Below, one piece after another: positions 1,629-62,310 of a stretch of DNA of 64,000 bases (positions are counted from its first letter, which is position 1; every line of letters begins with the position of its first letter). The notes beneath the pieces are model-generated. The model was not told the origin of the DNA. It saw only the letters and a program-made list of their open reading frames with translations, and did not search any database. The position numbers were made by a program, and so were the translations under genes. Source of the stretch: a virus; IMG/VR virus record IMGVR_UViG_3300017589_000061, positions 64,001 through 128,000 of that record; one strand, given 5' to 3'.

Positions 1629-1826
1629 ATGAAGAATACTGAAGAAGTTTATTTAGTAAGATATGGTAAGACTTGGTTTACAGATGGTGAAATCGAGCAA
1701 CGTTATAAATTTAAAAATATAGATACATTATTAGAGACAATGAAAAGTTGTTTGTCCGATGGTGAATGGGTAGAAGATTTGAATGGTAATAAAATAGATA
1801 TAAAAATAGAATATGCTAAAAGATAA
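1629..1826 (+). CDS. Hypothetical protein
   Basis: AAGGAG RBS. Confidence 0.7.
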   Translation: MKNTEEVYLVRYGKTWFTDGEIEQRYKFKNIDTLLETMKSCLSDGEWVEDLNGNKIDIKIEYAKR

Positions 1827-1893
1827 AAGTGATATTTTATCGCACAAATGATAAAAATAAACATTGAAATATCAACGATTATAGGAGGTAAAA

Positions 1894-2112
1894 ATGCAAG
1901 AACTAATTAATTTGGGAGTAGCATATACTGTAGATGGTTACAATGAATCTAAAAAAGAATTAAAAAAGTTTGAGAAAAAATATAATATGAAATCAAAAAT
2001 ATTTTATGACAAAATTAATAGAGATATTTGCTCAATACGTATTCCAACAGAAGATGTTACTGATTGGATATTTAACTGTAATGTTTTTATATCATGTGGT
2101 GGAAAATTATGA
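1894..2112 (+). CDS. Hypothetical protein
   Basis: AGGAGG RBS. Confidence 0.7.
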   Translation: MQELINLGVAYTVDGYNESKKELKKFEKKYNMKSKIFYDKINRDICSIRIPTEDVTDWIFNCNVFISCGGKL

Positions 2113-2175
2113 TGAGGTTATTTTGGAAGTGGTTATATAAATTAGAGTATCAACAAATTAAATTAAAAAAATATG

Positions 2176-2204
2176 TTGACAAGTTAATATAAAAATAGTA
2201 TAAT
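2176..2204 (+). promoter_or_regulatory. sigmaA consensus promoter
   Basis: TTGACA-17-TATAAT preceded by AATTAAATTAAAA motif. Confidence 0.8.
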
Positions 2205-2223
2205 GTAAAAAAGGAGTTATATT

Positions 2224-2496
2224 ATGGAAAATAAATTATTAAGTGATGTTGATTTTTTCAATGATATCAACGATGAAGAAAAATTTGATTTACAGTATCA
2301 AGGAATATTATGTGATGTTGCATGTCATATTATCAATTACAGACTAAAAAATAATATTACCCAAAAAGAATTTGCAGATAAAATAAAAATATCAAAACGC
2401 AAATTACTAAAAATTGAAAGGGCTGAATATGATATCAAATTAAATCTATTGTTTGAAATTTTAAATGAAATTAATATGGAAATAAAAATATATTAA
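2224..2496 (+). CDS. XRE-family HTH regulator
   Basis: RLKNNITQKEFADKIKISKRKLLKIERAE. Confidence 0.8.
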   Translation: MENKLLSDVDFFNDINDEEKFDLQYQGILCDVACHIINYRLKNNITQKEFADKIKISKRKLLKIERAEYDIKLNLLFEILNEINMEIKIY

Positions 2497-2508
2497 ATGG
2501 AGAACGAT

Positions 2509-2691
2509 ATGAATAAAATAATATTTAAATTAGCAGAAAAATTAAGTTATGAATTAGATAAAATGGCGATGTACATAGTAAAAGATGGTGCTGAATACGA
2601 GAGCCATAAGACAATGTTTAGCGTATTGGATAAAGCGTCAACATGGATTTACACCACTGGATATAACAAATGTGTTATAGGGGCAAAATAA
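2509..2691 (+). CDS. Hypothetical protein
   Basis: GGAG RBS before ATG 2509. Confidence 0.55.
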   Translation: MNKIIFKLAEKLSYELDKMAMYIVKDGAEYESHKTMFSVLDKASTWIYTTGYNKCVIGAK

Positions 2692-2731
2692 GGGTCAAGA
2701 ATATAAAAATAAATTAGGAGGTTAACAAGCA

Positions 2732-3001
2732 ATGAGTATGATGATTCAGTCGAGAGCAAAGTGTCTGAGTGCAAATTTTAAAAGCGTATTAAAATACCTA
2801 GATCGGCAATATCCAAATTATGGGTTTGACGAAACTGAACAAGATATAGAAATGGGAATGACAAATATTGATGAAGAAATAGAGAATGCACATAAAACAC
2901 TAATGTTTTTAAAAGAAGCTAATAAAAATAATCAGAAGCAACGCACAGCAATAAATAGTTTTATAAAAATGTTAGTTAAAGAAAGTCAAATATACAGATA
3001 A
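2732..3001 (+). CDS. Hypothetical protein
   Basis: GGAGG RBS. Confidence 0.7.
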   Translation: MSMMIQSRAKCLSANFKSVLKYLDRQYPNYGFDETEQDIEMGMTNIDEEIENAHKTLMFLKEANKNNQKQRTAINSFIKMLVKESQIYR

Positions 3002-3136
3002 AATTAAATTAAAATAAAAAAAGCTATCGACAAATTTCGATGGATAAAGGAGAAAATTATGTGTATAATAATAGTAAGTAGTCAATCCACTTTTAACAAT
3101 AGTGGATGAATACATAAATAAGAAGGAGGAATTAAT

Positions 3137-3547
3137 GTGTTAAATAAAGAAAACACAAATTACAAGCGTGGTTCAGTGGTATTAGTAAATTTAGGGGACA
3201 AAGATGGATCGATTCAGTATGGGATTCGACCGTGCGTGGTAATTTCTAACGATCTTAATAACAAATATTCAACTGTTTTAACAGTGGTACCATTGAGTAC
3301 ATCAAAATTTAAAAAGGAATTACCAACACACATATCTATTACAACTGATAATAGTGAAATTGAAAAAGATTCTATTGCTCTTTGTGAGCAACCTATGTTG
3401 ATAACGAAAGATAAAATCATAAAAGAATTATTTGAATTAGATAATACATTGATGATGCAAATCAATATTGGAGTTATGATACAGCTAGGGTTAATAAATA
3501 AAAATACATTAAAAGTAAATACATCAAAGATGGCTTTTGCTGTATAA
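3137..3547 (+). CDS. PemK/MazF-family endoribonuclease
   Basis: KRGSVVLVNLG..GSIQYGIRPCVVISNDLNNKYS..TVVPLST..PTH..CEQ. Confidence 0.9.
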   Translation: MLNKENTNYKRGSVVLVNLGDKDGSIQYGIRPCVVISNDLNNKYSTVLTVVPLSTSKFKKELPTHISITTDNSEIEKDSIALCEQPMLITKDKIIKELFELDNTLMMQINIGVMIQLGLINKNTLKVNTSKMAFAV

Positions 3548-7774: not shown

Positions 7775-7822
7775 CCTTGACCTATACATATAAAATTATA
7801 TTAAAAATAAATAAAATAGTTG

Positions 7823-7851
7823 TTGACAAATTGTGGAATAAGGAATATACT
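7823..7851 (+). promoter_or_regulatory. sigmaA-type promoter
   Basis: TTGACA-17-TATACT. Confidence 0.75.
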
Positions 7852-7882
7852 ATTATTATCAAAGAGAAAAGGAGAAATTAAT

Positions 7883-8134
7883 ATGAAACATGATGAAATG
7901 GAAATGAGGATTTTAGAGGTAGCAAACTACATGTTAAGAACCGAAGGTACAATAAGACAGACTGCAAATTATTTTAAAATGAGCAAGAGTACAGTACATA
8001 AAGATTTGCACAGGTTAAGAAATGTGAACTATACTAAGTATGGCGAAGTTAAAAAGATTTTAGATACCAATTGGGAAGAAAAATATATCCGTGGTGGACT
8101 TGCCACAAAACGAAAATATGCTATAATACAATAA
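7883..8134 (+). CDS. spoIIID: Sporulation regulator SpoIIID homologue
   Basis: TIRQTANYFKMSKSTVHKDL..RL..V....YGEVKKILD....RGGLATKRKY matches SpoIIID pattern; GGAG RBS before 7883. Confidence 0.9.
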   Translation: MKHDEMEMRILEVANYMLRTEGTIRQTANYFKMSKSTVHKDLHRLRNVNYTKYGEVKKILDTNWEEKYIRGGLATKRKYAIIQ

Positions 8135-9917: not shown

Positions 9918-10151
9918 ATGAAAGAAGTTAAATTATATGTTGAAGATAATGGTTATAGAGATTACGAAGATACGGATACATTACTAGACCAATTAAAAAA
10001 GGAATATGATAAACCAAGACCTGTAGTTTTACAATTATATGATAATGAGGGACAAATAATTATTGGTAGATGCACTTGTGTAATTGGAACATTAAAAAAT
10101 GGTTCTTTTCTTTTAACTGGCAATATTGATGATATTCTCTGTGAAAAGTAA
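9918..10151 (+). CDS. Hypothetical protein
   Basis: RBS; bounded by sites 9887 and 10151. Confidence 0.7.
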   Translation: MKEVKLYVEDNGYRDYEDTDTLLDQLKKEYDKPRPVVLQLYDNEGQIIIGRCTCVIGTLKNGSFLLTGNIDDILCEK

Positions 10152-10206
10152 TAAAACTAGGGTTTTATGAGAATTATAACGTTGAAATTTCAACGATTTA
10201 AGGAGA

Positions 10207-10958: not shown

Positions 10959-11276
10959 GGTGATAAATTCGTTGTTTTATTAGAAGCATGATGTTGAAAT
11001 TACAACGTTTATGGGAGGTGAAAAAATGAAAAATAAAGATAATACAATATATAAAGTATACATAATTGAAAACGTCACAATTTTAATTTTAGCAGGGTTT
11101 TTATGTTATATATTCAAGAGCTTATGGGGATTGTTACCCTTAGTATGTTTAAATACAGGTGTTAAAACAAGAAGTAATGATGATGAAGAATAGAAGAAGT
11201 AATTTAAACGAAACAAGGCTAAATTTAAAAATGACCGCATTTGATTTAAAAATATGAATAATAAAAGGGGAGTAAA

Positions 11277-11863: not shown

Positions 11864-12091
11864 ATGCTTTTAGATAAAGAAGATAGATTTTTATTAGTTG
11901 ATGAAGATGGTAATGTAGTTATTGTAACAGAAATAGAAACGAATCATTTATTGACAATGAATTCATCTATGCCAGTAAGAGGTAAATTAATAAGATTAGA
12001 TTATGAAGATTTAAATGTTGATAGTATTGAAGATGTAGAAGTACAATTAAGTTTTTATATAGAAAATATTGAAAATATTACAAAAAGATAA
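11864..12091 (+). CDS. Hypothetical protein
   Basis: GGGGTG RBS. Confidence 0.7.
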   Translation: MLLDKEDRFLLVDEDGNVVIVTEIETNHLLTMNSSMPVRGKLIRLDYEDLNVDSIEDVEVQLSFYIENIENITKR

Positions 12092-12157
12092 AAGAACTCT
12101 TTTATTACTTATAGTGAAGATTTAGATATTGAAATTTCAATAAAAAAGGAGAATTAA

Positions 12158-12527: not shown

Positions 12528-12947
12528 ATGGGAGACAAAAATATGGATATGTATACTAAATGTAATAATTGTAAAAAAGAATTAAATATTGAAGATGCAA
12601 AAAAGCAAATTGTAAATAATGGGATTTGGATGAATGAAAAGATAATTTGTAAAGATTGTTATGAAAAAGAAATAAAAAAGTTAATACAACAGTTATGTAA
12701 AACCTATAATTTAAAATATGAAAACTGTTTTACTGAAATAAAAAATAATCATTTGCTGATAAAAACAGAATTAGGTGAAATTAACAAAGAATATTACGGT
12801 ACAGATACTTATTATTTTGTAATAGACACTTATAATAATATTAGATGGATACAAAAAGATGATATAGAATTTAATTTACATAATGAAAATAATAATGCTA
12901 TTGAAAGAATGATTGAATTAATAAAATTTATGTGTGATAAATATTGA
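12528..12947 (+). CDS. Zn-finger hypothetical protein
   Basis: CNNC...CKDC. Confidence 0.7.
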   Translation: MGDKNMDMYTKCNNCKKELNIEDAKKQIVNNGIWMNEKIICKDCYEKEIKKLIQQLCKTYNLKYENCFTEIKNNHLLIKTELGEINKEYYGTDTYYFVIDTYNNIRWIQKDDIEFNLHNENNNAIERMIELIKFMCDKY

Positions 12948-13193
12948 AATTTCAACGTTTAAAATTGTAAAGATTATGATAAAATGAGATTTTTATCGGG
13001 AGGGCGAAAATCATGAGTGATACTCATCTTAATGGTAAATATATTAAAAGTATTGATAGAATTGATGACAAAACAATTCACATCAATCTAAAAAATGGAA
13101 AAATTGTAGTGATAAGAGCTACAATGTGTGATTATGATGATTGTGAATTGATTATTAGAAGATAAAATTCAGACTTTATCAGGAGGTTAAAAA

Positions 13194-14967: not shown

Positions 14968-15363
14968 TTAACTTCTGATATAAAAAGATATAAAGAAAAG
15001 TTACAAGAAGTAGAAAACGGGAATTTAGATATTTATATTTAAGGTTATATTTATAAAAGGAGTGAAAAGTGAAATAATGACTAGACATAAGTATATGAAG
15101 GTAATAAAACATATTAAAAGATTATTTTGTTATCACAAATGGGATATAGTAGGAAATCCTTATTTGTGGGATTATGGTAAAACTAAAAGAGCAAGTGTCA
15201 GATGTATAAAGTGCAATAAATTATCAGATATTGACATCTTTGATACGCCTAAAAGAAGATTATATTAAAAAGATAAAATAACGGTTTTATCCGAATTATA
15301 GGTCGAAAAAACGTTGAAATTTCAATGGTTATGGAATGTATAAAATTTAAAAAGGAGTAATAA

Positions 15364-16056
15364 ATGTTAGGATTAAATAAATTATATCAAGGTGACACAT
15401 TAAAACTAATAAAACAAATTGACAGTGAAAGTATTGACTTAATAGTAACTGATCCACCATATCCAACAACCAAAAGAGGTATAAGTAAGAATACAACAAC
15501 TGGGGGAATGATGGTAAGCGAATTAGGTAAGCAAGGGAAAATGTTTGAACATAATAATATAAGTCCCAAAGAATACATACCAGAGTTTTACAGAGTTTTA
15601 AAAGAAAATTCACATTTTTATATTATGACAAATCATGTAAATTTACAAGAGATGTTGAATGTTTGTACTGAAAATGGATTTCACTTTATTAAGTCTTTAA
15701 TTTGGAAAAAAGATAATAAAATTATGGGGCAGTGGTATATGTCACAATTTGAATATATATTATTTTTTAGAAAAGGAAAAGCAAAAAGAATTAATAAATG
15801 TGGAACTTCAGATGTACTAGAAGTTGCTAATAAGAAAACTAAAAGTGAGGATGGTAAAAATCTGCACGATACAGAAAAACCTATTGAGTTAATGCAAATA
15901 TTAATAGAAAATTCGAGTCAAGAAAATGACATACTTTTAGAGCCGTTTGCTGGAATTGGTGCAACGTTAATCGCATGCAAAAATTGCAATAGGCAATACA
16001 TAGGTTTTGAAATTGATGAAAGTTATTATAATATAGCGTTTCAAAGATTAAATTAA
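15364..16056 (+). CDS. N4-C/N6-A DNA methyltransferase (beta order)
   Basis: TDPPY catalytic motif, HDTEKP, LEPFAGIG SAM motif. Confidence 0.9.
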   Translation: MLGLNKLYQGDTLKLIKQIDSESIDLIVTDPPYPTTKRGISKNTTTGGMMVSELGKQGKMFEHNNISPKEYIPEFYRVLKENSHFYIMTNHVNLQEMLNVCTENGFHFIKSLIWKKDNKIMGQWYMSQFEYILFFRKGKAKRINKCGTSDVLEVANKKTKSEDGKNLHDTEKPIELMQILIENSSQENDILLEPFAGIGATLIACKNCNRQYIGFEIDESYYNIAFQRLN

Positions 16057-18624: not shown

Positions 18625-18705
18625 ATTAAAATGATAAAACCAAGATTTTATTATACAAAATCAAAAATTGAGCGTTGAAATTGCAACGAATTTAGGAGGT
18701 AAGAA

Positions 18706-20858: not shown

Positions 20859-20947
20859 GTTAAAAATGTAAAGTACATAAAATTTACATTTTATCGTACA
20901 AAACAAGAAAATAAGTGTTGAAATTTCAACAAAAAAGGAGTAGTAAT

Positions 20948-23137: not shown

Positions 23138-23360
23138 AGAATTAATTGAAAAACTTCAGGAATTAGATCAAGACACCGATATATTTATTGAAGGATATGA
23201 GTTTGGTAAAATATCAACATATGATGACATAGATGAAGAAAACTTTTACGTAATAGAAGGTAAAACGTGGAAGTATTAAAAGAGGAATTTTATTAGGTAA
23301 AACGTAAAATTAAGTGTTGGAATTTCAACGTTTAACAAATATAAAAGAAAGGAACATTAA

Positions 23361-29349: not shown

Positions 29350-29360
29350 AGGAGAATAAT

Positions 29361-30395: not shown

Positions 30396-30399
30396 TTAA

Positions 30400-35960: not shown

Positions 35961-37181
35961 GTGATAAAAATTTTAGTCAATAGAATAGAAAAACATATAA
36001 TTAAAAAGTCACATAAAATGTGGAAGATTTGTGATGAATTGTGTTTTAAGTCAAAGAATTTATATAATTACGCAAATTATATACAGAGGCAAAAATTTAT
36101 TAAGGACAAAAAAATAATTAAATATGTAGAATTATCAAAATTATTAAATACACATGAAACATTTATAGCATTAGGATCAAATTCGTCACAAATGACATTA
36201 AAATTATTAGATAAAGCTTGGAAATCATTCTTTATATCAATAAAAGATTATCGAAAAAATCCAAGTAAATATTTAGGAGAACCCAAAATTCCTAAATACA
36301 AAGATAAAAACGGCAGATATATTTGCGTATTAACAAATTTACAATCGCAAATAAAAGATGACTATTTATATTTTGCTTTTAAACCTTTGAAACCATACAA
36401 CAATATGTTCATAACTAAAATTAAAGGTAAGCATATGCAAACAAGAATTATTCCAAAGGGTTCATGTTATGTATTAGAAATTGTGTATGAAATAGAAGTA
36501 TCAGATATTATAACAGAATCCAAAAATATAGCAGGTATTGATTTAGGACTTAATAATTTTGCTACATTAACAAATAACGTAGGTGCATTGCCCATCGTTA
36601 TAAATGGTAAAGGAATAAAATCTTATAATCAGTATTGGAATAAACAAGTCTCAAATTTAACTTCAGATTTAAAGAAACGTCATAATCAAAATTGGAGCAA
36701 TAAACTTGAAATATTAACACAAAAACGCAACAATAAAATGGAATATTTTTTACACTGTGCAAGTAAATATGTAGTTGATTATTGTATGGGTATAGGATGT
36801 GATACCATTATTATAGGTTATAATAAAGAATGGAAACAAAACTGCAACATGGGCAAAACTACTCAAAATTTTATACAAATACCTTATTATAATTTTATTA
36901 ACAAACTAAAATACAAATGTGAAGATAAAGGAATTAAATTTATTCAAACAGAAGAAAGCTACACATCGGGTACGAGTTTTCTTGATTACGAATTACCAAT
37001 AAAAGATAATTACGATAAATCAAGAAGAATTCATAGAGGATTATTTAAAAGTAATGAGGGATTATTGATTAATGCAGATGTTAATGGCAGTTATCAAATA
37101 ATAAAGAAAGTATTCTCAAATGCTTTTGCTAATGAGATAAAGGGTGTACATTTACATCCAATTAGAGTTAATGTTGGTTAA
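35961..37181 (+). CDS. tnpB: TnpB RNA-guided endonuclease family (IS200/IS605, no TnpA seen)
   Basis: SKNLYNYAN, PKYK, GIDLGLNN, KLKYKCE, EESYTS, INADVNGS. Confidence 0.9.
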   Translation: MIKILVNRIEKHIIKKSHKMWKICDELCFKSKNLYNYANYIQRQKFIKDKKIIKYVELSKLLNTHETFIALGSNSSQMTLKLLDKAWKSFFISIKDYRKNPSKYLGEPKIPKYKDKNGRYICVLTNLQSQIKDDYLYFAFKPLKPYNNMFITKIKGKHMQTRIIPKGSCYVLEIVYEIEVSDIITESKNIAGIDLGLNNFATLTNNVGALPIVINGKGIKSYNQYWNKQVSNLTSDLKKRHNQNWSNKLEILTQKRNNKMEYFLHCASKYVVDYCMGIGCDTIIIGYNKEWKQNCNMGKTTQNFIQIPYYNFINKLKYKCEDKGIKFIQTEESYTSGTSFLDYELPIKDNYDKSRRIHRGLFKSNEGLLINADVNGSYQIIKKVFSNAFANEIKGVHLHPIRVNVG

Positions 37182-37327
37182 ACAATATTATGTACTAATA
37201 AATTTGGTTTATTTATGTAAACCAGATAAATGTAAGAATTTATCCGAATGTTCAAAGAAATATTCGTTGAAATTTAAGCATTTGTTTATAAATTAAAACA
37301 AAAAAAATAAAAGGAGAAATAATACAA

Positions 37328-38041: not shown

Positions 38042-38392
38042 ATGACATTTGGTGAAAAATTAAAAGAATTACGCATAGAAAAAGGATTGACTCAAAAAGA
38101 ATTCGGTAAAATATTCAACATGCAAAGATCAAGATTATCGCAATATGAAACAAATAAACGACAAGTTGATGATAAAACTAAAACATTATTTGCAGATTAC
38201 TTTAATATTTCGCTTGATTATTTACTTGGAAGAAGTAATATTAGAAATCCTGAATTATTAAACATTGATAGTGATATTCAAAAATTATTGAGTAATACTA
38301 AAAGTATTGAAATGTTAAAAGATTTTAATACTTTGCCTGACATAAAAAAACAAGAGGTATTAAAGTTTGTAAAATTTCAAAAAAATAATTAG
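38042..38392 (+). CDS. XRE-family HTH repressor
   Basis: FGEKLKELRIEKGLTQKEF...YETNKR...ISLDYLLGRS. Confidence 0.9.
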   Translation: MTFGEKLKELRIEKGLTQKEFGKIFNMQRSRLSQYETNKRQVDDKTKTLFADYFNISLDYLLGRSNIRNPELLNIDSDIQKLLSNTKSIEMLKDFNTLPDIKKQEVLKFVKFQKNN

Positions 38393-38711
38393 ATATTAGT
38401 AGGTATAAAGATGATTAAATTAATAAATTGGATTATTAAAAAAACTATATTAACTTGGGATGTAGACTATACCAAACTAACAAAATCTGAATTAAAATCA
38501 TTTAAAGAAGCTAAAAAAGATAATTATAGAATAACTAATGAACAATTAAAAAAAGAGCTTGGTATATTAAATAATACAAAGGAGAAATAAATTGTGTGAA
38601 TATTGTAACGATGAGGATTTCGAAAATCGCATACCGTTACCACCTATGAAACATATAGATAATCAACTAGATAGTAATATGAAAGTTTTATATTAGAAAG
38701 GAGATGATTAA

Positions 38712-38981
38712 GTGGAAAAATTAGTAAGCGAAGAAGGTCAATTATATGCTTGTGGTAATAGTTTATGTATAGAAGAAGGTATAGAATGCACAGATTGTCA
38801 TTATGCAGACGAAGCATTTTCAAAACTTGCAAAATACCAAAATACAAAATTACAACCTGAACAAGTAGAAAAATTAAAAGAGAAAAACAAAACTCTAGCA
38901 AAAGAAAATCGCAAGCTGAAGAAAGAAATGTTAAAAATGATGACATATGCTTGGTATAAACAGGAGGACGAAGATGAGTAA
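38712..38981 (+). CDS. Hypothetical protein
   Basis: KLAKYQNTKLQPEQV; RBS. Confidence 0.6.
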   Translation: MEKLVSEEGQLYACGNSLCIEEGIECTDCHYADEAFSKLAKYQNTKLQPEQVEKLKEKNKTLAKENRKLKKEMLKMMTYAWYKQEDEDE

Positions 38982-39311
38982 GAATAAGTGTTTAAATTGT
39001 ACAGAACGTTACATAGGTTGTCATGATACTTGCGAAAGTTATTTAAAGTTTAAAGCTGAAAGAGAATTAATTAGTAAGAACCGATACATATTAAATTATA
39101 TTAAAAAATAAGTTAGAAAGAATATTTTATTGCCTGAAGGGAGTTAGTAATGTGTAAGAATGATTTGCTTAAATGGATTTATGAATTACCCGATGATATT
39201 CAAATATACAGAACAAAAATTGACGATTATAATTGTGTAGATATTAAAATATTTACGAAGCCAAAAGATCAAGAATTTTTAGAATGGTATTTTGGGATGT
39301 AGGAGGATAAA

Positions 39312-40217: not shown

Positions 40218-40673
40218 TTGAAAATTGTATTTTTAGATTTTGACGGTGTTATTAATTCATTAATATGGTATAAAAATCACTATAATGAGTGGGAAATAAA
40301 ATATTTAGCAAACGAGCAAGCAATTCAATGGGTGTCGGAATTTTGTGAAAAATATGGTTACAAAATAGTCATTTCAAGCACATGGAGATATGACGGGCTA
40401 GAAGATTGTATTAAATATTTAAAAGGTTACGGATTGAGAGATGACATTGACATAATAGATGTTACTCCTATATTGCATGGTAAACAACGTGGTGATGAAA
40501 TAACAGTATGGTTAAATAATCATCCAGAAGTTGAAAGATATTTAATATTTGACGATGATTCTGATATGACTGTACATATGGATAAATTAATTAAAAGTCA
40601 TTGCCATGTTGGGTTTACTTACAAGGAATATAAGATGGCTGAAGATATTGAAATTGCTAGTGTAATAGGGTAA
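40218..40673 (+). CDS. HAD-domain protein (Swiss-army-knife RNA-repair-like)
   Basis: FLDFDGVI, ISSTWR, RGDEI..WL, IFDDD. Confidence 0.8.
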   Translation: MKIVFLDFDGVINSLIWYKNHYNEWEIKYLANEQAIQWVSEFCEKYGYKIVISSTWRYDGLEDCIKYLKGYGLRDDIDIIDVTPILHGKQRGDEITVWLNNHPEVERYLIFDDDSDMTVHMDKLIKSHCHVGFTYKEYKMAEDIEIASVIG

Positions 40674-40747
40674 TAAAAAATACATTTTATCGCATAAACG
40701 GTAAAAAATAATGTTGAAATTTCAACAATATTAAGGAGGGTAAAATA

Positions 40748-41017
40748 ATGAGAGGTTTAAAATTAAGTATATTTCATGAAAAAGCTCATCGATTTGAATA
40801 TTATCAAATTGGAGTTGATAATGATAATAGAGAGTTATTATTAATAACTGAAGGTTTTTATATTATACATACAGGAGTTTATAGTAATGAATTTTTAGAT
40901 GTAGAAAGTAGAATTGCTGAGGTTATTTTAAAACTAAATAATAATTCAGATTGTAAAGAAGTTACAATATTTGACACACCGAATGCATGGCACGGAAGGA
41001 AATTTGGGATCAGATAA
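40748..41017 (+). CDS. Hypothetical protein
   Basis: RBS; bounded by sites 40673 and 41017. Confidence 0.65.
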   Translation: MRGLKLSIFHEKAHRFEYYQIGVDNDNRELLLITEGFYIIHTGVYSNEFLDVESRIAEVILKLNNNSDCKEVTIFDTPNAWHGRKFGIR

Positions 41018-41388: not shown

Positions 41389-41457
41389 AAAACGTTGAAA
41401 TTTCAACGCCGTAAAAGTGATAAAATGTGGTTTTTATCGTAGGAGGAACAAATACAT

Positions 41458-47971: not shown

Positions 47972-48042
47972 AAGCATTGAAATTTCAACGTTAAAAATTA
48001 GTATAATAAAAGAATAGTTTTAACTGCCGAAAGGAGAATGAA

Positions 48043-53377: not shown

Positions 53378-53977
53378 ATGAAAACAAAAATTAATAAGAT
53401 GGAAAATGATTGGATTAACATAAAAAACAAATGTAGGAATACTGTCAATAAAGAATATACAGACAACGAACCTAAATCATTATTTAAAACAAAATTACTA
53501 ATATCAGAACATTCTCCAATAAGATTATTAAAAGTAGATTGGAGTTGGAAAAATATATTTTCATGGATTGCCACTCAATTTTCCAGATCAAAATGGGAGT
53601 GCTTTATATCAACTCGTAGAAGTGATAGAACTGGTATAGATAGAGGGGTGTTGTCTCAAAATGAATTAGTTAATTTTGATGGAGAAGCTAATGCTCAAAA
53701 TTTAATTGATACTGCGAGAAAAAGACTATGTTTTCAAGCAAGCAAAGAAACTAGAGAATTAATGGAAGATTTGAAAATAACACTAAGGGAAACTGAGCCA
53801 GAATTAGCTGATGTACTAGTTCCAAATTGTATATATCGTTGCTCCTGTCCCGAATTTGAAGAATGTGGATATTTTAAACATATAAAAGAATTATTGACAA
53901 AAGACGAATTAATTGATATTAAATTGAGATATCATTTATATAATGTATATTTTTATGAAAATAATAAATTAAGTTAA
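53378..53977 (+). CDS. ThyX-like flavin-dependent thymidylate synthase
   Basis: SEHSP, RKRLC..AS.ETR, VPNCIYR..CPEF. Confidence 0.6.
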   Translation: MKTKINKMENDWINIKNKCRNTVNKEYTDNEPKSLFKTKLLISEHSPIRLLKVDWSWKNIFSWIATQFSRSKWECFISTRRSDRTGIDRGVLSQNELVNFDGEANAQNLIDTARKRLCFQASKETRELMEDLKITLRETEPELADVLVPNCIYRCSCPEFEECGYFKHIKELLTKDELIDIKLRYHLYNVYFYENNKLS

Positions 53978-54004: not shown

Positions 54005-54670
54005 ATGAGTAGTTGGAATGGAAAAATAATATGTACGCAAAGTTTTTATGGTAATGTTTTTAATGAACAAGAAATTTATAATATTAAAAATGGTTGTTTC
54101 CAAAAGGGGATATTTGATAAAGAATTTGAGAATATAGATGAAATAAATAGTTACTTTTCGGCTAAATTTGAAGAAATTACAGAAAATAATTATGTTAACC
54201 TAAATAAACGTTGCAATTACAACGTTTCTAAAAGTGATTTACCTAATAAAATCCCTGTTTTATGTGAAATTTTAAATGTTGAACCACTGAAAAAATTTGG
54301 CATTCAATTATCCAAAGAGAAATATTATATTGATACATACGGACACTTATTGACTGAATGTGGAACAAGTAAAGATGAATATGTTCCATATCTAATTTCA
54401 GGCGAATATAAAATAGTAAAATTGCCATTTTATTCGTTTGCTGAAGATGAAAGGATTATTATGAAAGGTTTATTATTGAATGATTATAATTACATAGCAA
54501 GAGATGAAGATAATGATTTATGGGCTTATCAACTTAAACCTTTGGAAGATGAATCAGGCGAATATGATGCTGATGATGGAGATTTTTCAAAACTAAACAA
54601 TGGATTCTTTAAACAAGTCCAATGGGGAAATGTACTTGACATTAAAGCTGAAATTGATAGATTAAATTAA
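54005..54670 (+). CDS. Hypothetical protein
   Basis: GGAGG RBS; YIARDED motif. Confidence 0.65.
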   Translation: MSSWNGKIICTQSFYGNVFNEQEIYNIKNGCFQKGIFDKEFENIDEINSYFSAKFEEITENNYVNLNKRCNYNVSKSDLPNKIPVLCEILNVEPLKKFGIQLSKEKYYIDTYGHLLTECGTSKDEYVPYLISGEYKIVKLPFYSFAEDERIIMKGLLLNDYNYIARDEDNDLWAYQLKPLEDESGEYDADDGDFSKLNNGFFKQVQWGNVLDIKAEIDRLN

Positions 54671-55538: not shown

Positions 55539-57398
55539 CTATTTTTCACACCCTTCAATGAATTTTTTATAATCTTCATTTTTGAGTATTAAAAAAGGAT
55601 AGCCATTTGAACCTATCCCAAAGTATTCTTTCAATTGTTTATTTGCTCTAACACGAATTAAATCATTGCCTTCTAATATTTCTTGTATGCTACGTTTTAA
55701 TTGAGTTTTTACTGTATCCTCTTTTACATTTTGTTCTTTAGAATACATTTTAATTACATCTTTTTCAGTAGTATAGCCTTGATTACTTATAAAAAATATA
55801 ATATACTTAACTATTTCTTCTGTACGTAATTCTGAAATCTTACTTACTCCGTTAGCATTAGCTTGTATATATTGTGGATAAACTTTATTTGCTTTTTCTT
55901 CGCCAAAAGTTCTTAATATGTATTCACGACTTATCCCTTTTAGTGTAATATTCTTGTCTTTTAATTCTTGAGCAAGTTCTTCACTATCTTCTAATTGTAA
56001 TATTCCATACTCACTAAAAGAATAAAAATTTGTTAATTTTTTAAAGTTATATTTTGCACTTATATGTTTAGCTTTCTTCAATTCATTTTCAGGAATATCT
56101 TCCAGTGAAACTTTTTCAATCATATTCAACAACGCAAATAATGTTAGTGATTGTGAAAGTGTATTTGGTTTATTTGGATTTATACCACACACATTCATTA
56201 AGGTTTTATAACTTGCATAGAACAAAGGCTTATCATTATGTGTAATGGATTCATTTATATAATTTGTAAAGTGTAATAATATACTTTTAATATGAGGTTT
56301 CCTTGTCCTGATTAAACTTGATAAATAGGGAAAATTCATTTTAAATTCATCACTATCTAAATAATTTGCACTATCAAGCATTAATTGTTTCTGTCTTATA
56401 GTCCATTCTGATTCTTTTAATTCTAAATTATAGATACATTTAATAAATTCTATTGATTCACTTCTTTTACATCTTGCTAACTCTTCGGTTATACTAATTA
56501 TTGTTCTAGTTTTACCACAACCATGACAATAATAAAGTGGTGTGCCATCATCTGATATGAATATTCTTGCTGAAGGATTGTTGTCTTGGTGTTTAGGTAA
56601 AATACAATTAAAGTTTTCGCCAATGGTTAATCCAAGATATTCTGATATATCTATATTATTTATGAAGTCATACAAATCTTGTTGGCAACTAAACACTAAG
56701 GGGGTTTTAGGGGTACTATATAAAGAAGGTTTATTTAGTTCTTTATTACGTACCCCTTTTCTCAAATCTATTAGTTGAGCTAACACATTAACGTTCATAT
56801 TCTTAATAGCTTCTATATTCATATTAGCATTTGTATTAATTTGATTATAAGTATTGGGTTTGTTTTTAATTTCTTTTTTATTATAATATTTAGCCACAAC
56901 TTCACTTCCTTTAATAATACTGTTGCAGTTTTCATATATCAATTTTCTACCACCAAAGAATATTCTACTTGCATCCATTGTTTGTTTGTCACAGTTATCA
57001 AAAGCAAGTATTAAACTCTTTTGCAGTTTATTTCTCTCATCTAGATTAGTTATAACTTCGTCATTACAGAATACTAATCTAAATTTATGGCATATAGGCG
57101 TATGACTGAATGTTGTATAACCAAAACAAGGAATAATATTTAATTCCTTACATCTATTTAATTCAGTTTCTATGTCTGAATTATTGTCAAAATCTAATGC
57201 AAATAATTGTTGTGAAATAAAGTCATTACTCGTTCTACCATTTAAATATGCTGGTTTAAAAGTACAACCTTGTGCCAAATTATTTGCTAAATCTTTAATT
57301 TTCATTTCAGTTTGTTGTAATCTATTTTGTAACTTTTTAACTTCATTTGTATCTGGTTTGCTAATATATTTTGTATTGTCAAACATTATTTTAATCAT
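55539..57398 (-). CDS. Replication initiator/primase-like protein with CHC2-type Zn finger
   Basis: FALDFDN, YTTFSH..KFRLVF, CILPKHQDNNPS...YYCHGC. Confidence 0.6.
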   Translation of the reverse strand: MIKIMFDNTKYISKPDTNEVKKLQNRLQQTEMKIKDLANNLAQGCTFKPAYLNGRTSNDFISQQLFALDFDNNSDIETELNRCKELNIIPCFGYTTFSHTPICHKFRLVFCNDEVITNLDERNKLQKSLILAFDNCDKQTMDASRIFFGGRKLIYENCNSIIKGSEVVAKYYNKKEIKNKPNTYNQINTNANMNIEAIKNMNVNVLAQLIDLRKGVRNKELNKPSLYSTPKTPLVFSCQQDLYDFINNIDISEYLGLTIGENFNCILPKHQDNNPSARIFISDDGTPLYYCHGCGKTRTIISITEELARCKRSESIEFIKCIYNLELKESEWTIRQKQLMLDSANYLDSDEFKMNFPYLSSLIRTRKPHIKSILLHFTNYINESITHNDKPLFYASYKTLMNVCGINPNKPNTLSQSLTLFALLNMIEKVSLEDIPENELKKAKHISAKYNFKKLTNFYSFSEYGILQLEDSEELAQELKDKNITLKGISREYILRTFGEEKANKVYPQYIQANANGVSKISELRTEEIVKYIIFFISNQGYTTEKDVIKMYSKEQNVKEDTVKTQLKRSIQEILEGNDLIRVRANKQLKEYFGIGSNGYPFLILKNEDYKKFIEGCEK

Positions 57399-57432
57399 TA
57401 TTTGTTTACCTTCTCATATTTAGTATTTTAAT

Positions 57433-57606
57433 TTATTTTTCTACATACATTTTAAATATTTCTTCAAATTCAGGAGTATTGTCATATTTCCAAACTAATA
57501 ATCTAGCATTGGTTAAATTTATATCTGTTTTCATTGGATAAATATTATGTTCTGCCAATAAGGTATATAATCTTTTACTATAAACCATTTGAAATTCTTT
57601 TCTCAT
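57433..57606 (-). CDS. Small hypothetical protein, 57 aa (not in track)
   Basis: GGAG RBS; MRKEFQMVYSKRL...YVEK*. Confidence 0.55.
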   Translation of the reverse strand: MRKEFQMVYSKRLYTLLAEHNIYPMKTDINLTNARLLVWKYDNTPEFEEIFKMYVEK

Positions 57607-57679
57607 CTTTTAATCTCCATTCATATTTAGTATAATAAAAGAGCCATTCTAATTGAACAGCTCTCCTTTTAATTTAATT

Positions 57680-58708
57680 TTATAAATTTTTTATATCTTT
57701 CTTTTCAATTTCTTTAATTCCATTTTCATCAAAATATTCACCTAAAATATCATCAACCTGATTGTCATCGTAAATGTCGATCATCGAAGTGCTATCCCAT
57801 GACGAAATATCTTTTATAATATTTGCTGGGACGTTTGCACTGACAAGACCAGTAGTAAAATTATGTCTTAACGAATGCCAATAAAAATCAACATTTAAAT
57901 ACTTACCAAATGATTCAGCATAATAATTTAAACTTGCTTCAGTCATACATTGCCATTTATCATCTTTTTTAATAACAAGTAAATCGTCAATACTTACTCC
58001 CAATTTTTCTCTTTCAATCATCCATAAATCAAAGTAGGGTTTAAATTTATTCTTTAATGTGTACTTAAAAATTTGCTTCCCAGCCTTACTTCGCCCTTTT
58101 GATTTTATCTTTTCTGGTGTTTTGTAAAGCGAACCATATAAAATATTTTCTTCATCGAAAAATGAAGTTTTAAATCTTAACAATTCTGATTTTCTACTAC
58201 CCGAACCCCAAGCAAGAGCTAATGCACAAGCTTGTTGATATTCTTTATTCTCAACTAAATAATCAAGTAATTTTTGAACATCTTCATCTTGTAATATTGT
58301 TTTTTCTCTAACTGGATTTTTAGCTGGAGCAGGAATTTTATTAATTATATTTCTAAAATTCGGGTATAAATCGTCCATTATTGCTTCGATATAGTTACTC
58401 ATACTGCTTAATGAAGCTCTTAATCTTCTTATCCTATTAGATGATAAATGCATAATATTTAACATATAATTTTGAAATTTTATTAAATCACGTTTTGTAA
58501 AATCAACAAAATATTTGTTATTATTATTTTCTAAATTCCAAATATAAAATATTTTTATATCTGAAGTATAATTTTTAACAGTCAAATCACTTCTGTCTAT
58601 TGAATTAAGATAATCACAAAATTCCTCAAGCAACTGCTTATTTTCTTCTAATACTAAATCATAATTACCTTCGCTTACTACATTATTATATACCGTACCT
58701 CTAGCCAA
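57680..58708 (-). CDS. Tyrosine recombinase
   Basis: SGSRKSEL, KSKG, HSLRH, SSW, IDIY. Confidence 0.85.
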   Translation of the reverse strand: MARGTVYNNVVSEGNYDLVLEENKQLLEEFCDYLNSIDRSDLTVKNYTSDIKIFYIWNLENNNNKYFVDFTKRDLIKFQNYMLNIMHLSSNRIRRLRASLSSMSNYIEAIMDDLYPNFRNIINKIPAPAKNPVREKTILQDEDVQKLLDYLVENKEYQQACALALAWGSGSRKSELLRFKTSFFDEENILYGSLYKTPEKIKSKGRSKAGKQIFKYTLKNKFKPYFDLWMIEREKLGVSIDDLLVIKKDDKWQCMTEASLNYYAESFGKYLNVDFYWHSLRHNFTTGLVSANVPANIIKDISSWDSTSMIDIYDDNQVDDILGEYFDENGIKEIEKKDIKNL

Positions 58709-59197: not shown

Positions 59198-59206
59198 AAT
59201 ATCATT

Positions 59207-59557
59207 TTACTTACCTTCACCAATGTCTATATGTCCTTTAATTAAATCTACAAACTTAACTGATACCTGTGTTGCATAAAATACGAACCCAGACAAAAGT
59301 ATTAAATAACAAGCTGTCAACAAATTAACTTCTTCACCATTTACATTTACTGCTATAATATCAGGGTTAATAAATCCTGCATAATAAGTTGCGAAAAAAC
59401 AAAATGCTATAATTATACCTTTAATTATTCCTTGAAAAAGTTTCTTTTTATCAAATGCTTGGTTAAATAATGCCGAAAATGATCCTAAAACTATATTAAC
59501 TACTATTAAAATTACTAATCCTTTTGCAAGGTTAAGTGTACTTAATTCAATAAACAT
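59207..59557 (-). CDS. Holin
   Basis: Three TM helices, directly after endolysin. Confidence 0.7.
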   Translation of the reverse strand: MFIELSTLNLAKGLVILIVVNIVLGSFSALFNQAFDKKKLFQGIIKGIIIAFCFFATYYAGFINPDIIAVNVNGEEVNLLTACYLILLSGFVFYATQVSVKFVDLIKGHIDIGEGK

Positions 59558-59573
59558 TCTTTTAATCTCCTTT

Positions 59574-60941
59574 TTAATTTAAATTAAATCTTATTATATT
59601 ATGTATTCGTCTTGAATTTTCACCTTCAAATACATATTCACCATTGGCATCCATAAAAGTTGATCCACCCGAATCTAATGATATAGCAAAATTATATGCC
59701 TCACCTGTACTATTATCTGAAATTATTTTTAACAATTCACCATGAGAAACATTCTTAACAGTTAATAAATATACTTTATTTAGTCTTTTATTGTATCCTA
59801 ATACAGTTTTATTTGTTTTTCTTAATACATCCGAATAATCAACCCATTTATTATCTTGTTTTCTATATCCACCTTTAAAACCTTCGGTTACGGGACTATA
59901 CTTAAAATTATTATCTTGTGTATTTTTAAGACCAAGTCCTCCAATTACCAAACTAATTTTATTTAAATCTAATTCATTTAAAAAGTTAATTCTCTTTAAA
60001 TCAACTGTATTATCCTTATAAATTATAAAAACTGATTGTGGTGTTCCAAAATCATAATAATGATTGGCTACATCTTGATATGTTTTACCATCTACATATA
60101 AAATACTTGTTGCATAAGTAGTACCATCTGGATTTCGCCAATAATATGTTCCGTTGGTGCAGTTTGTAAATTCAGTAATATCCCATATTTTTTTATCTAC
60201 AATAGCAACATCTAATAACTCTGGATTTCCTTTTAATTCAGTCATATTGCTATATTTTTTAAAATCAACTTTTGGTTTTTCGGCTATTGGTGCTACTATT
60301 ACATCTTCAATAACTTCACCATTTATAGCTTTTGCCAAACTAATAATCATTGATTCTGCATATTGATAATCAGTCAAATATTTCATACTAATATCTTCTA
60401 ATTTTGCTTTTTCTCTTATTATTTGCTTTGCTTTATCAAATTCCATTTTTTTCATCTCCTTTTTTATATTATCAATGAATACATCCCAATGTGGCAATAT
60501 CAATCTAGGACAAATTTTACCACTCCAATGTTTATGTGGTACAACTTTATCAATAGTAATTCCAGTAGCCTTTAATAATTCGGCTACAAATTTAATTGCT
60601 AATTCTTCAGCACCGTCTACTTCAGCAATTTCTATAGCTATTGATTTTCTATTACCATCACCATTTAACCCATCGCCAGAATTCCAACTAGCTTCAATAA
60701 TAGGTATTTCTTGATAAACTTCATTTGCCCCAACTGTAAAATGCCAAGAAACATATCCTGTAGCAGTATCTACATATTCACTATTTGCCTTAGCACTTGT
60801 ATTTGTGTTGCCAGTGTTATGTATTGTAATATACTCAGGATTCATTTTATATTGTGATCTGCTGGTAGCATTGCTTATTGGAATTAAATCTTGAATTATG
60901 TTAATTGTATCAGAACTTACAATTCCATTTTTAATTAACAT
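59574..60941 (-). CDS. Endolysin: amidase_2 plus phosphodiester-glycosidase-like C-terminal domain
   Basis: YITIHNT, SWHFTV, GNRKSIAIEI, PHKHWSGKICP; C-terminal AISLDSGGST. Confidence 0.85.
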   Translation of the reverse strand: MLIKNGIVSSDTINIIQDLIPISNATSRSQYKMNPEYITIHNTGNTNTSAKANSEYVDTATGYVSWHFTVGANEVYQEIPIIEASWNSGDGLNGDGNRKSIAIEIAEVDGAEELAIKFVAELLKATGITIDKVVPHKHWSGKICPRLILPHWDVFIDNIKKEMKKMEFDKAKQIIREKAKLEDISMKYLTDYQYAESMIISLAKAINGEVIEDVIVAPIAEKPKVDFKKYSNMTELKGNPELLDVAIVDKKIWDITEFTNCTNGTYYWRNPDGTTYATSILYVDGKTYQDVANHYYDFGTPQSVFIIYKDNTVDLKRINFLNELDLNKISLVIGGLGLKNTQDNNFKYSPVTEGFKGGYRKQDNKWVDYSDVLRKTNKTVLGYNKRLNKVYLLTVKNVSHGELLKIISDNSTGEAYNFAISLDSGGSTFMDANGEYVFEGENSRRIHNIIRFNLN

Positions 60942-60962
60942 CTTTTACACATCCTTTATATT

Positions 60963-60989
60963 AAAAAGAGTGTCAAGTTTATGACACTC
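60963..60989 (-). terminator. Rho-independent terminator
   Basis: GAGTGTCA/TGACACTC stem with U-tail on minus strand. Confidence 0.65.
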
Positions 60990-61002
60990 ACAAAATTAAA
61001 TT

Positions 61003-61233
61003 TTATTTTTCAGGAACTTTTAACATTTCTTCAATTTCTACGTCCATTGTTTCGTAGTCTAAATTTTCACAACCAGTAAAATTGTATTTGTAAATTGTTT
61101 CAGTATTTCTATTTCTTACATGAGCTACTAATATATCAGTAGCAACTCCCATATCAACTTCTTTTTCTCTTGATATAGTTTTTCTTTCTTCTAAATATTT
61201 TTGTTCAAATTTTTCTCTTAATTCAATTATCAT
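61003..61233 (-). CDS. Hypothetical protein directly downstream of recombinase site
   Basis: AGGAG RBS. Confidence 0.7.
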   Translation of the reverse strand: MIIELREKFEQKYLEERKTISREKEVDMGVATDILVAHVRNRNTETIYKYNFTGCENLDYETMDVEIEEMLKVPEK

Positions 61234-61311
61234 TTTTATCTCCTAATTTTTGATTTTTATATTAAAAAAGTGTTGAAATTCCAACACTATAATTCGGATA
61301 AAATGTGACTT

Positions 61312-62310
61312 TTATGATATGTATTGTTCATAACTTGCTTTTACTTTATTCTGATTTATTTTTGCGTATATCATAGTTGAATTTATTGACGAATGCCCCA
61401 TTAATTCTGCCAACACGGTAATATCTAATCCCTTATTACATGCTTGAGTCGCATAACTATGACGAAATTTATGCGGTGATACCGAGGAAATTATATCTGT
61501 CTTTTTAGCAATACGTTTAAAAATTTTTTCCATTCCAGATTTACCTAAAGGTCTAAATGGCTTTCTTTCGCCAAGAAATAAACTCTCACTTGTTCCTTCA
61601 CGTTCTTTTATGTATTCTTGTAAGTATAATTTACATTTAACAGAAAAATAAACTATTCTATTTTTATCACCCTTACCATGAACCAATATACTATTATCAT
61701 TCCAACTGATGTCTTTTAATTTAATTTTTAACATTTCACTTATTCTACAACCAGTTGATATTGCTACTTCTATAATACTCTTTTCTCGTATATCTTTACA
61801 TACATTTCTTAATTTTTCAACTTCTTCAATCTCTAATGGTTCTCTTAATTCTTTTACGTTAACTTTTAAATTCTTTAATCTAACAGACGGATCTTTTTGT
61901 ATTATTTCTTCTTTGTAAAGTGTACCGAAGAAACTTCTCAAAACTGCCATTTTACCATTCAAAGTTATTTTCTCATATTTTCTTTCAGATTGAATAATTA
62001 CAAGATAACCTCTTAAATCGTTTATGTCAATTTGGTTAACTGGTTTATTTATGTATTTGCTAAATAGATTTAATTCTTCTCTATATCGCTCTATAGATTG
62101 TTCCGACAATCCTTCGACAGTTTTTAATCCTAAAAAGAAATGTATCTTTTCTGGTAAATCAGAAATCATTAAATCTGTACTATTAGATAATAATGTATAA
62201 CAGCTTAAATTTCTATCAAGAATTTCTTTAACCTCTAAGTTATTTATGCTATATTTATTTTGTAATTCTGACAGTATTTTGATGACAACTAATTCTTTTT
62301 CATCTTCCAT
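61312..62310 (-). CDS. XerD/integron-integrase-like tyrosine recombinase, candidate cassette integrase
   Basis: TGCRISE, GKGDK, HKFRH, MGHSS, TMIY; stop codon lies in the composite site. Confidence 0.9.
   Translation of the reverse strand: MEDEKELVVIKILSELQNKYSINNLEVKEILDRNLSCYTLLSNSTDLMISDLPEKIHFFLGLKTVEGLSEQSIERYREELNLFSKYINKPVNQIDINDLRGYLVIIQSERKYEKITLNGKMAVLRSFFGTLYKEEIIQKDPSVRLKNLKVNVKELREPLEIEEVEKLRNVCKDIREKSIIEVAISTGCRISEMLKIKLKDISWNDNSILVHGKGDKNRIVYFSVKCKLYLQEYIKEREGTSESLFLGERKPFRPLGKSGMEKIFKRIAKKTDIISSVSPHKFRHSYATQACNKGLDITVLAELMGHSSINSTMIYAKINQNKVKASYEQYIS

Follow-up and report, generated by a model that had tools for sequence, protein, structure and literature searches.

Which protein or process reads a pair of short symmetric DNA elements that recurs, at only two mutual distances, between the genes of an uncultured phage? 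The pair was found in a 64,000-nucleotide stretch of viral DNA (the window), which comprises bases 64001 to 128000 of the complete, 137,366-bp virus record IMGVR_UViG_3300017589_000061 with direct terminal repeats. One element is a palindromic 14-mer, GTTGAAATTTCAAC (the palindrome), and the other is an 18-bp site, ATAAAA-N6-TTTTAT (the core). We tentatively interpret a core and a palindrome standing 12 or 22 bp apart, here called a composite, as a putative two-dyad protein site on duplex DNA that would control transcription at gene junctions, akin to the SPBRE elements of SPbeta and the stoperators of phage L5; our confidence in this interpretation is somewhat less than even. Cooperative binding to duplex DNA is favored because the two spacings, one helical turn apart, are held across diverged spacer sequences, and we know of no RNA reason for two such spacings.

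Occurrence and spacing of the two elements

Both elements were overrepresented in the window. The exact 14-mer occurs in 4 copies (0.00 expected), whereas matches with up to two mismatches number 16 (0.87 expected; the largest count in shuffled sequence was 4). The core, allowing one mismatch, is present in 48 copies against 8.3 expected. Across the whole genome there are 76 cores and 24 palindrome matches. A preliminary description of the window had listed 14 copies of one palindrome, each 12, 22, or in one case 16 bp from a core. All of its positions and gaps were correct (Table 1), and all 14 copies are detectable, but only 4 are exact and the other 10 carry one or two mismatches. Two further palindromes with two mismatches were located at 54210 and 51204, and the latter, which is intragenic and has no nearby core, looks like a chance match. 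A supposed degenerate copy at 40647, 12 bp from a core, has four mismatches and is not significant. It carries no weight, since about 0.4 matches at four or fewer mismatches are expected over the 192 core-side slots.

A core with at most one mismatch lies at exactly 12 or 22 bp from 13 of the 16 window palindromes. Random placement of the palindromes gave a mean of 0.05 at these distances, with a maximum of 2 in 5000 trials. Confining the placement to within 100 nt of a core gave a mean of 0.33 and a maximum of 4, also in 5000 trials. As had been described, the palindrome may stand on either side of the core, and both orders were seen in the window and in relatives. The dyad centers of the two classes are 28 and 38 bp apart, which, with 10.5 bp to a turn, corresponds to 2.7 and 3.6 turns. 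The earlier suggestion that 12 and 22 bp, differing by about one helical turn, would put both elements on the same DNA face is therefore correct only insofar as the two classes have one common relative angle; the elements are not literally cofacial.

The spacing rule in related phages

Three public collections were scanned for a core, a gap left free between 4 and 34 bp, and a palindrome. Matches were obtained in 77 metagenome stretches, 4 genome contigs, and 3 viral contigs. Among 78 distinct composites recovered by exact matching, 47 had a gap of 22 bp and 28 a gap of 12 bp, the remainder being 16 bp (2 composites) or 11 bp (1 composite). Relaxed matching in the same loci and the genome placed 121 of 134 composites at 12 or 22 bp. 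When gaps from 0 to 80 bp were allowed, 81 of 91 fell into these two classes, with no third peak at 32 or 42 bp. Spacing in homologous phages is thus not random; the preliminary description had named random spacing there as a result that would refute its idea.

The spacers themselves have diverged. The median pairwise difference was 13 of 22 positions among 47 distinct 22-bp spacers and 7 of 12 among 27 distinct 12-bp spacers; unrelated sequence would differ at about 15 of 22, as estimated from spacer composition. Because the spacers are near random and free of insertions and deletions while their length is kept, we conclude that spacer length is under selection. The claim that spacer sequence varies at fixed length accordingly stands with regard to length, but the variation is partial, as spacers form families with a common A-rich stretch. 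This stretch, ending in ..AAAC, adjoins the palindrome, and (G)TAAAAATAA is present in many 22-bp spacers.

The 9-mer TAAAAATAA has 48 intergenic copies, located at 48 to 70 kb of the genome (in the window, up to about 5500). In addition to recurring inside many of the 22-bp spacers, it is usually found directly beside the ribosome site and often also just after the upstream stop codon. A third half-site or alternative hairpin was considered, in which GATAAAA or TAAAAATAA pairs with the right core arm, as it can in some 22-bp spacers (for instance, 40665 to 40750), and was set aside, this arrangement being absent from the 12-bp class. In two loci of relatives (L228:10215-10308 and L088:34-105), one palindrome has cores on both sides, at 22 and 22 bp or at 22 and 12 bp.

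The rule is confined to a narrow clade, and the palindrome is phage restricted. Allowing one mismatch, the palindrome was not found in the nearest named relatives, LIBA6276 (whole record), c-st, and SPbeta SPBc2, and a scan of the SPbeta yonK-yonN gap for palindromes returned nothing informative. The 28 loci around DnaE relatives (38 to 68% identity, viral contigs) contained no palindrome, and cores only at background level. In a 4.5-Mb metagenome-assembled genome, all four palindrome copies lie on contigs sharing homology with this phage; a single copy was found in a 2.9-Mb genome. A host transcription factor regulon was rejected, since the copies in these two genome records occur only on contigs homologous to this phage. 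No cultured phage was found within the palindrome-bearing clade, and the string GTTGAAATTTCAAC had no occurrence in the literature covered by the only search made for it.

Structure of the elements and their placement at gene junctions

Including its symmetric flanks, a purine before and a pyrimidine after, the full core is a 20-bp dyad, RATAAAA-N6-TTTTATY. Its center is variable: 43 different 6-bp centers (43% G+C) occur among the 78 composites, and centers also vary among the window copies. The palindrome has a conserved upstream flank, ..A-A-A-C, and a weaker downstream G at core-first sites or A at palindrome-first sites, so that the full element approximates ..AAAC-GTTGAAATTTCAAC-G. In both orders, the A-rich ..AAAC flank is on the gene-upstream side. 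By direct reading, the half-sites GATAAAA and GTTGAAA have 5 of 7 letters in common.

Cores occupy about 76 gene junctions of the genome, on both strands and co-oriented with the genes, and palindromes occupy about 18. Most cores are solitary and end 0 to 6 nt ahead of the ribosome site, including those of late minus-strand genes. Every well-matched intergenic palindrome is accompanied by a core, with one exception at genome position 135397-135410 (minus strand). That palindrome has one mismatch and stands 19 nt before a start codon; immediately upstream of it is a group II intron reverse transcriptase gene (genome 135535-136944). Cores paired with a palindrome are better conserved, 12 of 16 being perfect, compared with 15 of 60 lone cores (Fisher P = 0.0007).

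As a rule, a composite takes up all of the intergenic DNA between the stop codon and the ribosome site. Among 111 sites, 89 could be oriented, of which 53 read core-palindrome-gene and 36 palindrome-core-gene, both gap classes being represented. Of the 30 core-first sites that were measured, 15 have the last letter of the upstream stop codon at core position 1 or 4. The start codon follows the palindrome by 16 to 22 nt in 33 of 53 sites, and either element can take the slot beside the ribosome site. Variants of the core arms are asymmetric with respect to the gene, T18>A being seen 23 times and A1>T 8 times (P = 0.01).

This placement could indicate a function at the RNA level, with composites forming a pair of hairpins in polycistronic transcripts that serve as processing, stability, or translation control signals. 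The core and palindrome stem-loops might be formed spontaneously or be held by protein and could act, for example, as a 5' stabilizer after cleavage in the A-rich flank. We consider this unlikely, albeit deserving of weight. It would be consistent with the span from stop codon to ribosome site and its preferred stop and start positions, with the ability of either element to adjoin the ribosome site, and with the constant side of the ..AAAC flank and the asymmetry of the arm variants; furthermore, interior arm changes comprised four A>G and no T>C. Folded as RNA, the palindrome reaches -2.5 kcal/mol alone, -4.9 kcal/mol with a C/G flank, and -4.9 to -7.5 kcal/mol with its flanks, and the predicted minimum-energy folds of composites contain two separate local hairpins without long-range pairing.

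The core, however, hardly folds as RNA (median of -0.3 kcal/mol, with 35% predicted unfolded and only 5 to 13% at -2 kcal/mol or below) and would thus be conserved as sequence rather than as structure. Its arms show no covariation. Palindrome variants are mostly single sided: GTTGGAATTTCAAC and GTTGAAATTCCAAC were both seen but the corresponding double change was not, leaving positions 5 and 10 with no double change, and the only recurrent double change affects the outermost pair. A variant in the related locus L002 yields an A.C mismatch on the sense strand. Over all core arm changes, 5 A>G stand against 6 T>C, numbers too small for a G.U-versus-A.C test, and G is in any case in excess on the sense strand. 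An RNA role also lacks an obvious rationale for two spacings 10 nt apart, and a search of the window against Rfam 15 gave no match at the gathering score.

A proposed protein site with two dyads on duplex DNA

The dependence of the palindrome on a core, the two conserved spacings, the weak core hairpin, and the better match of cores next to palindromes argue for a second, core-dependent site on duplex DNA. To this extent the earlier view of the palindrome as a second protein-binding site is retained by inference, whereas its likening to an arm site is not (see below). In the proposed mechanism, a dimeric, phage-encoded DNA-binding protein would sit on the core at most junctions (about 76 copies). 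At about 18 of them, a palindrome at a permitted distance would bring in a second dimer that touches the first, giving a stronger, cooperative complex; one protein might serve both dyads, or two interacting ones. The complex would serve as an operator or a roadblock, like SPBRE/MrpR or the L5 stoperators, for transcription that starts at the junction or runs through it, and would thereby set the expression of downstream accessory and early genes. We infer the protein binding, the identity of the binders, and the effect on transcription from sequence. Because the conserved blocks recur many times, they would also provide short homologies for module exchange between related phages, and recombination between copies would be a by-product.

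Several points weigh against this mechanism. The dyads are not cofacial, their centers being 2.7 and 3.6 turns apart, and 76 junction sites are many for an ordinary operator. The tie to stop codon and ribosome site and the gene-relative asymmetries (the ..AAAC flank and the 23 versus 8 arm variants) would not be predicted from a purely symmetric DNA site, and these features keep an RNA or promoter-like role alive. The window contains about 11 near-consensus sigmaA promoters (TTGACA-17-TATAAT with an A/T-rich upstream block), and since none has a palindrome or a core, the composite is not the operator of the obvious early promoters. Nor can a sigmaA-type promoter be read in most composites, where no -10 element having A as its second and T as its sixth letter can be placed. 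Finally, although internal alignment ends between this genome and related contigs lie within 30 bp of a core in 43 of 242 cases, compared with 10.6 by random placement, this enrichment is overstated because the null used random rather than intergenic positions.

Promoter and terminator readings

Near-consensus sigmaA promoters are found at 2176, 4270, 5371, 7823, and 14511 and at approximately 23640, 35500, 50000, and 52200, with TAAATTAAA(AA) or ATTATATTAAAAAAG ahead of them. TAAATTAAA is the most enriched intergenic 9-mer and has 61 intergenic copies in the genome. Attempts to read a host-type promoter into the composite failed. With the TTGAAA of the palindrome as a -35 element, a core downstream at 12 bp offers a TG-n-TAAAAT extended -10, but the 20-bp spacing is too long, and there is no room for a -10 when the palindrome adjoins the ribosome site. 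If the -10 element is instead placed on the A-rich hexamer preceding the palindrome, T is missing from position 6 in most copies and A from position 2 in many. Neither reading holds as a general explanation.

Alternatively, the oriented palindrome, ..TArAAAC-GTTGAAATTTCAAC, could be a phage-specific promoter, used by a YonO-type polymerase or by the host polymerase with a phage factor, the core being a phased regulator site. This we regard as improbable, and slightly more so if it is limited to the YonO-type single-chain RNA polymerase. The genome does encode a YonO homologue of 911 amino acids, located outside the window at genome position 29260-31995 (minus strand; locus L153:9260-11995), with 42% identity to a gene of Clostridium phage c-st (annotated there as two parts) and 27% to yonO of SPbeta. 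Searches for a sigma factor found none in the genome: there was no Sigma70_r2 match, and the only r4_2 match scored 8.7 bits. The palindromes, about 18 copies, are intergenic, stand 16 to 22 nt or about 50 to 70 nt before start codons, and have their flank co-oriented with the genes, in which they resemble T7-type promoter sets. In the late region, a strong terminator is located ahead of one copy, and another copy stands before a late-strand gene. SPbeta YonO, in contrast, is confined to the late operon, which it transcribes from a single start site, whereas 14 of the approximately 18 copies here fall within the early/replication strand block. None is clearly at the head of the late operon, and the site beside the yonO block has two mismatches, which is background level. 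A perfect dyad would be unusual for a promoter, and the core can be downstream of the palindrome. According to the available text of the 2017 report on YonO, its promoter sequence was left undetermined (PMC5467207), and no later paper settling it was found in the literature listing.

A sense-strand terminator was rejected on the grounds of weak stems and the lack of a U-run behind either hairpin on that strand. Terminator-like consensus matches at palindromes are antisense only, at 10195-10180 and 18688-18673 (both minus strand). They could suggest an antisense terminator, in which the palindrome hairpin is followed on the opposite strand by a T-run, the complement of the A-rich flank, which lies gene-upstream in both orders. 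We find this very improbable: the stem is only 5 to 6 bp (-2.5 to -4.9 kcal/mol), T-runs are poor at about half of the palindrome-first sites, and the core and the two fixed spacings would go unexplained.

Tyrosine recombinases and exchange points

The preliminary description had likened the palindrome to arm or accessory sites that set the directionality of tyrosine recombination; in the corresponding model, the cores would be crossover sites of a tyrosine recombinase moving gene cassettes. Two tyrosine recombinase genes are indeed present in the window, one of which ends inside a composite, and the core is laid out as arm-6 bp-arm, as recombinase core sites are. Both proteins appear to have the R, H-x-x-R, H/W, and Y motifs. 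For the product of 61312-62310, Pfam finds only Phage_int_SAM_1/4/5 and Phage_integrase; its best solved relatives are XerA, XerC-like, and XerD proteins (E values of 1e-24 to 1e-27), the XerA alignment beginning at residue 52 versus residue 39, and the match to IntI4 is partial in length (E = 1.6e-12). The divergent 57680-58708 protein has relatives in large phages of Firmicutes, among them Tsamsa, phiL47, and SPbeta-like phages; we take several of these to be lytic. Neither protein showed similarity to SPbeta YopR/MrpR or YopP in blastp (E value for YopR of 0.76 or worse), nor to MrpR in a sequence search of solved structures.

Further agreement with the recombination model comes from the overlap of stop codons with the sites, as is also the case in integron attC sites, and from relatives in which different genes flank the same sites, with breakpoints at core arms. 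Nevertheless, we judge it quite improbable. No arm-binding domain was found by Pfam in either recombinase, the palindrome is a dyad, which arm-type sites are not known to be, and cores stand at about 76 junctions, conserved late operons included. The core has 43 different centers among 78 composites, a heterogeneity that would be expected to block Xer- or Int-type exchange between copies, and its arms are only 6 to 7 bp. The arm-site role proposed for the palindrome is not supported. Predicted folds show no long-range, attC-like pairing, and no Y1 TnpA or HUH transposase was detected, there being no Y1_Tnp match anywhere in the genome. A stand-alone open reading frame (ORF) of 96 amino acids at genome position 53502-53792 (plus strand; L155:1502-1792) has a subthreshold Arm-DNA-bind_4 match (E = 0.004; 17 bits versus a cutoff of 22).

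Related contigs are syntenic mosaics of this genome; the comparison took in parts of long relatives on contigs of 150, 88, and 57 kb. The same core centers (CGAGTT, TGTGTG, and CAGATA) occur with unrelated spacers and in both gap classes, and at the junction leading into the replication module, the lone core of the window (25722) has palindrome-12-core or palindrome-22-core as its counterpart in relatives. The phage encodes an ERF annealase, which could account for exchange at short homologies, and such exchange explains the homology breakpoints equally as well as recombination between sites. We read exchange at composites as probably due to short homology at repeated conserved blocks, as with PeSL cassettes, rather than as demonstrated site-specific recombination.

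Individual composites and genome context

The composites of the window are compiled in Table 1, together with the recombinase genes and two candidate regulators for the two-dyad site. The core center and spacer of the 15273 composite recur in relatives (L002/L227, L162, and L163). In L002, what follows the homologue of the gene upstream of the 18634 composite is a composite of reversed order, with a different gene after it. A post-core flank, TTTTATCCGAATTATAG, is common to the composites at 15273-15300 and 61298-61315 (reverse complement), 46 kb apart on opposite strands, and suggests copying between sites.

Table 1. Composites in the window, with recombinase and candidate regulator genes
Feature	Coordinates	Strand	Gap (bp)	Palindrome start	Remarks
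Core-palindrome-gene	1823-1876	+	22	1863	Core 1823-1840 perfect; palindrome 1863-1876, 2 mismatches; stop codon of ORF 1629-1826 inside left core arm; start codon 1894, 17 nt past palindrome
Core-palindrome-gene	10151-10194	+	12	10181	Both elements perfect; start codon 10213, 18 nt past palindrome
Core-palindrome-gene	10963-11006	+	12	10993	1 mismatch in core, 1 in palindrome
Core-palindrome-gene	12088-12141	+	22	12128	Palindrome ATTGAAATTTCAAT, both end letters changed symmetrically
Palindrome-core-gene	12943-12996	+	22	12943	Other order; palindrome 12943-12956, core 12979-12996; ribosome site directly after core
Core-palindrome	15273-15326	+	22	15313	Upstream of DNA methyltransferase gene 15364-16056
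Core-palindrome-gene	18634-18687	+	22	18674	
Core-palindrome-gene	20877-20930	+	22	20917	Both elements perfect
Core-palindrome-gene	23276-23329	+	22	23316	Palindrome GTTGGAATTTCAAC
Core-palindrome, weak	37226-37279	+	22	37266	2 mismatches in each element; just after TnpB-like gene 35961-37181
Core-palindrome-gene	40673-40726	+	22	40713	Both elements perfect; 4-mismatch look-alike 40647 on other side of core
Palindrome-core-gene	41394-41437	+	12	41394	Both elements perfect
Palindrome-core-gene, off class	47976-48023	+	16	47976	16-bp class with same core center recurs in relatives
Composite-like	54210-54263	+	22	54210	2-mismatch palindrome, perfect core; all within ORF 54005-54670
Core-palindrome-gene	61272-61315	-	12	61272	Stop codon of Xer-like recombinase gene (61312-62310) in core; 76-amino-acid ORF 61003-61233 next after composite
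Xre-type HTH_3 protein	2224-2496	+			90 amino acids; consensus TTGACA-17-TATAAT promoter ahead; tentative candidate regulator
Xre-type HTH_3 protein	38042-38392	+			116 amino acids; tentative candidate for a dyad-binding regulator
Divergent tyrosine recombinase-like gene	57680-58708	-			342 amino acids; Pfam only SAM_4 and Phage_integrase
Xer-type tyrosine recombinase	61312-62310	-			332 amino acids; SAM-like and catalytic domains; catalytic motifs visible in alignment

The window has a G+C content of 25 to 30%, and for about its first 55 kb the genes lie on the plus strand. The DnaE-type polymerase has 64% identity with those of Clostridioides phages LIBA6276 and LIBA2945, and the genome encodes DnaB, RecJ, primase, the ERF annealase, NrdD, endolysin and holin, and ParA and ParB. 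Other genes are for TnpB, a group II intron reverse transcriptase, the two tyrosine recombinase-like proteins, three Xre-type helix-turn-helix (HTH) proteins, and one SpoIIID-like protein. In addition to the two Xre-type genes of Table 1, the third is located at genome position 57370-57630. Based on the similarities of DnaE and the YonO homologue and on this gene content, the phage is assigned to the large SPbeta/c-st-like type. The host is probably a Clostridium, to judge by the record titles of related contigs. The SpoIIID-like DNA-binding protein (window 7820-8134, plus strand; Pfam PF12116, E = 5.6e-25) has a TTGACA-17-TATACT promoter in front. The TnpB or IS605 OrfB-type gene (window 35961-37181, plus strand) has an OrfB_IS605 and a Cas12f1-like TNB domain, with a weak composite behind it.

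Given the ParA and ParB_N genes and a 14-bp dyad of parS type, the composites might also serve the phage ParB as dispersed parS-like partition sites. The P1 parS A-box, ATTTCAA/C, is similar to the right half of the palindrome, and the plasmid prophage N15 has dispersed centromere sites. This explanation seems barely plausible: no palindrome is near parAB, and neither the junction cores nor the link to stop codon and ribosome site would be explained by it. An array of TTATC(T/C)AT-type repeats with a 12-bp period, at genome position ~38550-39050 (L153:18550-19050) between the divergent parB and parA genes, is the likelier centromere and is itself a likely centromere or origin.

Comparison with known systems

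If the cooperative two-dyad operator is real, it would show how a sizeable group of uncultured SPbeta/c-st-like clostridial phages punctuate and control one-directional gene arrays of 70 kb, with a clean geometric rule of 12 or 22 bp that can be tested by spacer mutants. Marking points at which accessory genes are swapped, the composites also bear on the origin of phage mosaicism. Should the palindrome instead prove to be a YonO promoter, this polymerase class would have its first defined set of promoters.

Several systems resemble the composites in part. Lambda Int-type arm sites likewise provide a second site near an arm-spacer-arm core, and recombinase genes are present here too. The differences are the missing arm-binding domain, the dyad, the variable centers, and the cores at about 76 junctions. 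Integron attC sites form one long, imperfect inverted repeat hairpin with extrahelical bases, unlike the two local hairpins predicted here. P1 parS combines A-box and B-box motifs, which two ParB domains read; it has in common with our composites two motif types in constrained geometry and an A-box heptamer similar to the right half of the palindrome, but the sites described here are dispersed at gene junctions instead of forming one centromere, and parAB has its own repeat array. In T4-type phages, PeSL cassettes are small composite conserved motifs between variable small genes at which modules are exchanged (PMC2839356 and PMC4122927, as far as the available text goes). Our composites are similarly exchange points between variable genes in related phages. 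A PeSL, as presented in that text, combines a strong sigma70-like promoter with a terminator stem-loop, whereas most composites have no readable sigmaA promoter and neither of their hairpins has a sense-strand U-run behind it.

Dispersed phage operators are the closest precedents. In the available text of the report on SPBRE, these elements are located in about ten SPbeta early promoter regions and bound by MrpR (YopR), a repressor with a recombinase fold (PMC10516654). Within what that text covers, the likeness extends to a short, phage-specific element with roughly 10 to 18 intergenic copies in the early strand block of an SPbeta-type phage that has YonO, and both phages have two tyrosine recombinase-like genes. 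The sequence that we derived from the SPBRE regions upstream of seven SPbeta genes is nonpalindromic and overlaps the sigmaA -10 element. The palindrome, in contrast, is a perfect dyad away from consensus promoters, and its occurrence is tied to a second dyad 12 or 22 bp off; SPbeta does not have the 14-mer, and its YopR and YopP have no sequence similarity to the recombinase-like proteins of this phage.

The stoperators of L5 reportedly (Brown et al. 1997) comprise dozens of co-oriented sites in short early and late intergenic gaps; they are said to be asymmetric 13-bp sites for one monomeric repressor, gp71, and a block to passing polymerase has reportedly been proposed. The 76 cores and approximately 18 palindromes, at junctions on both strands, appear similar in their many copies in short intergenic gaps. 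Composites differ in having two dyads with a fixed mutual spacing, so that their orientation is visible only in the flanks. From both SPBRE and the stoperators, composites are set apart by the separation from consensus promoters, the use of two dyads, and the strict two-state spacing between them.

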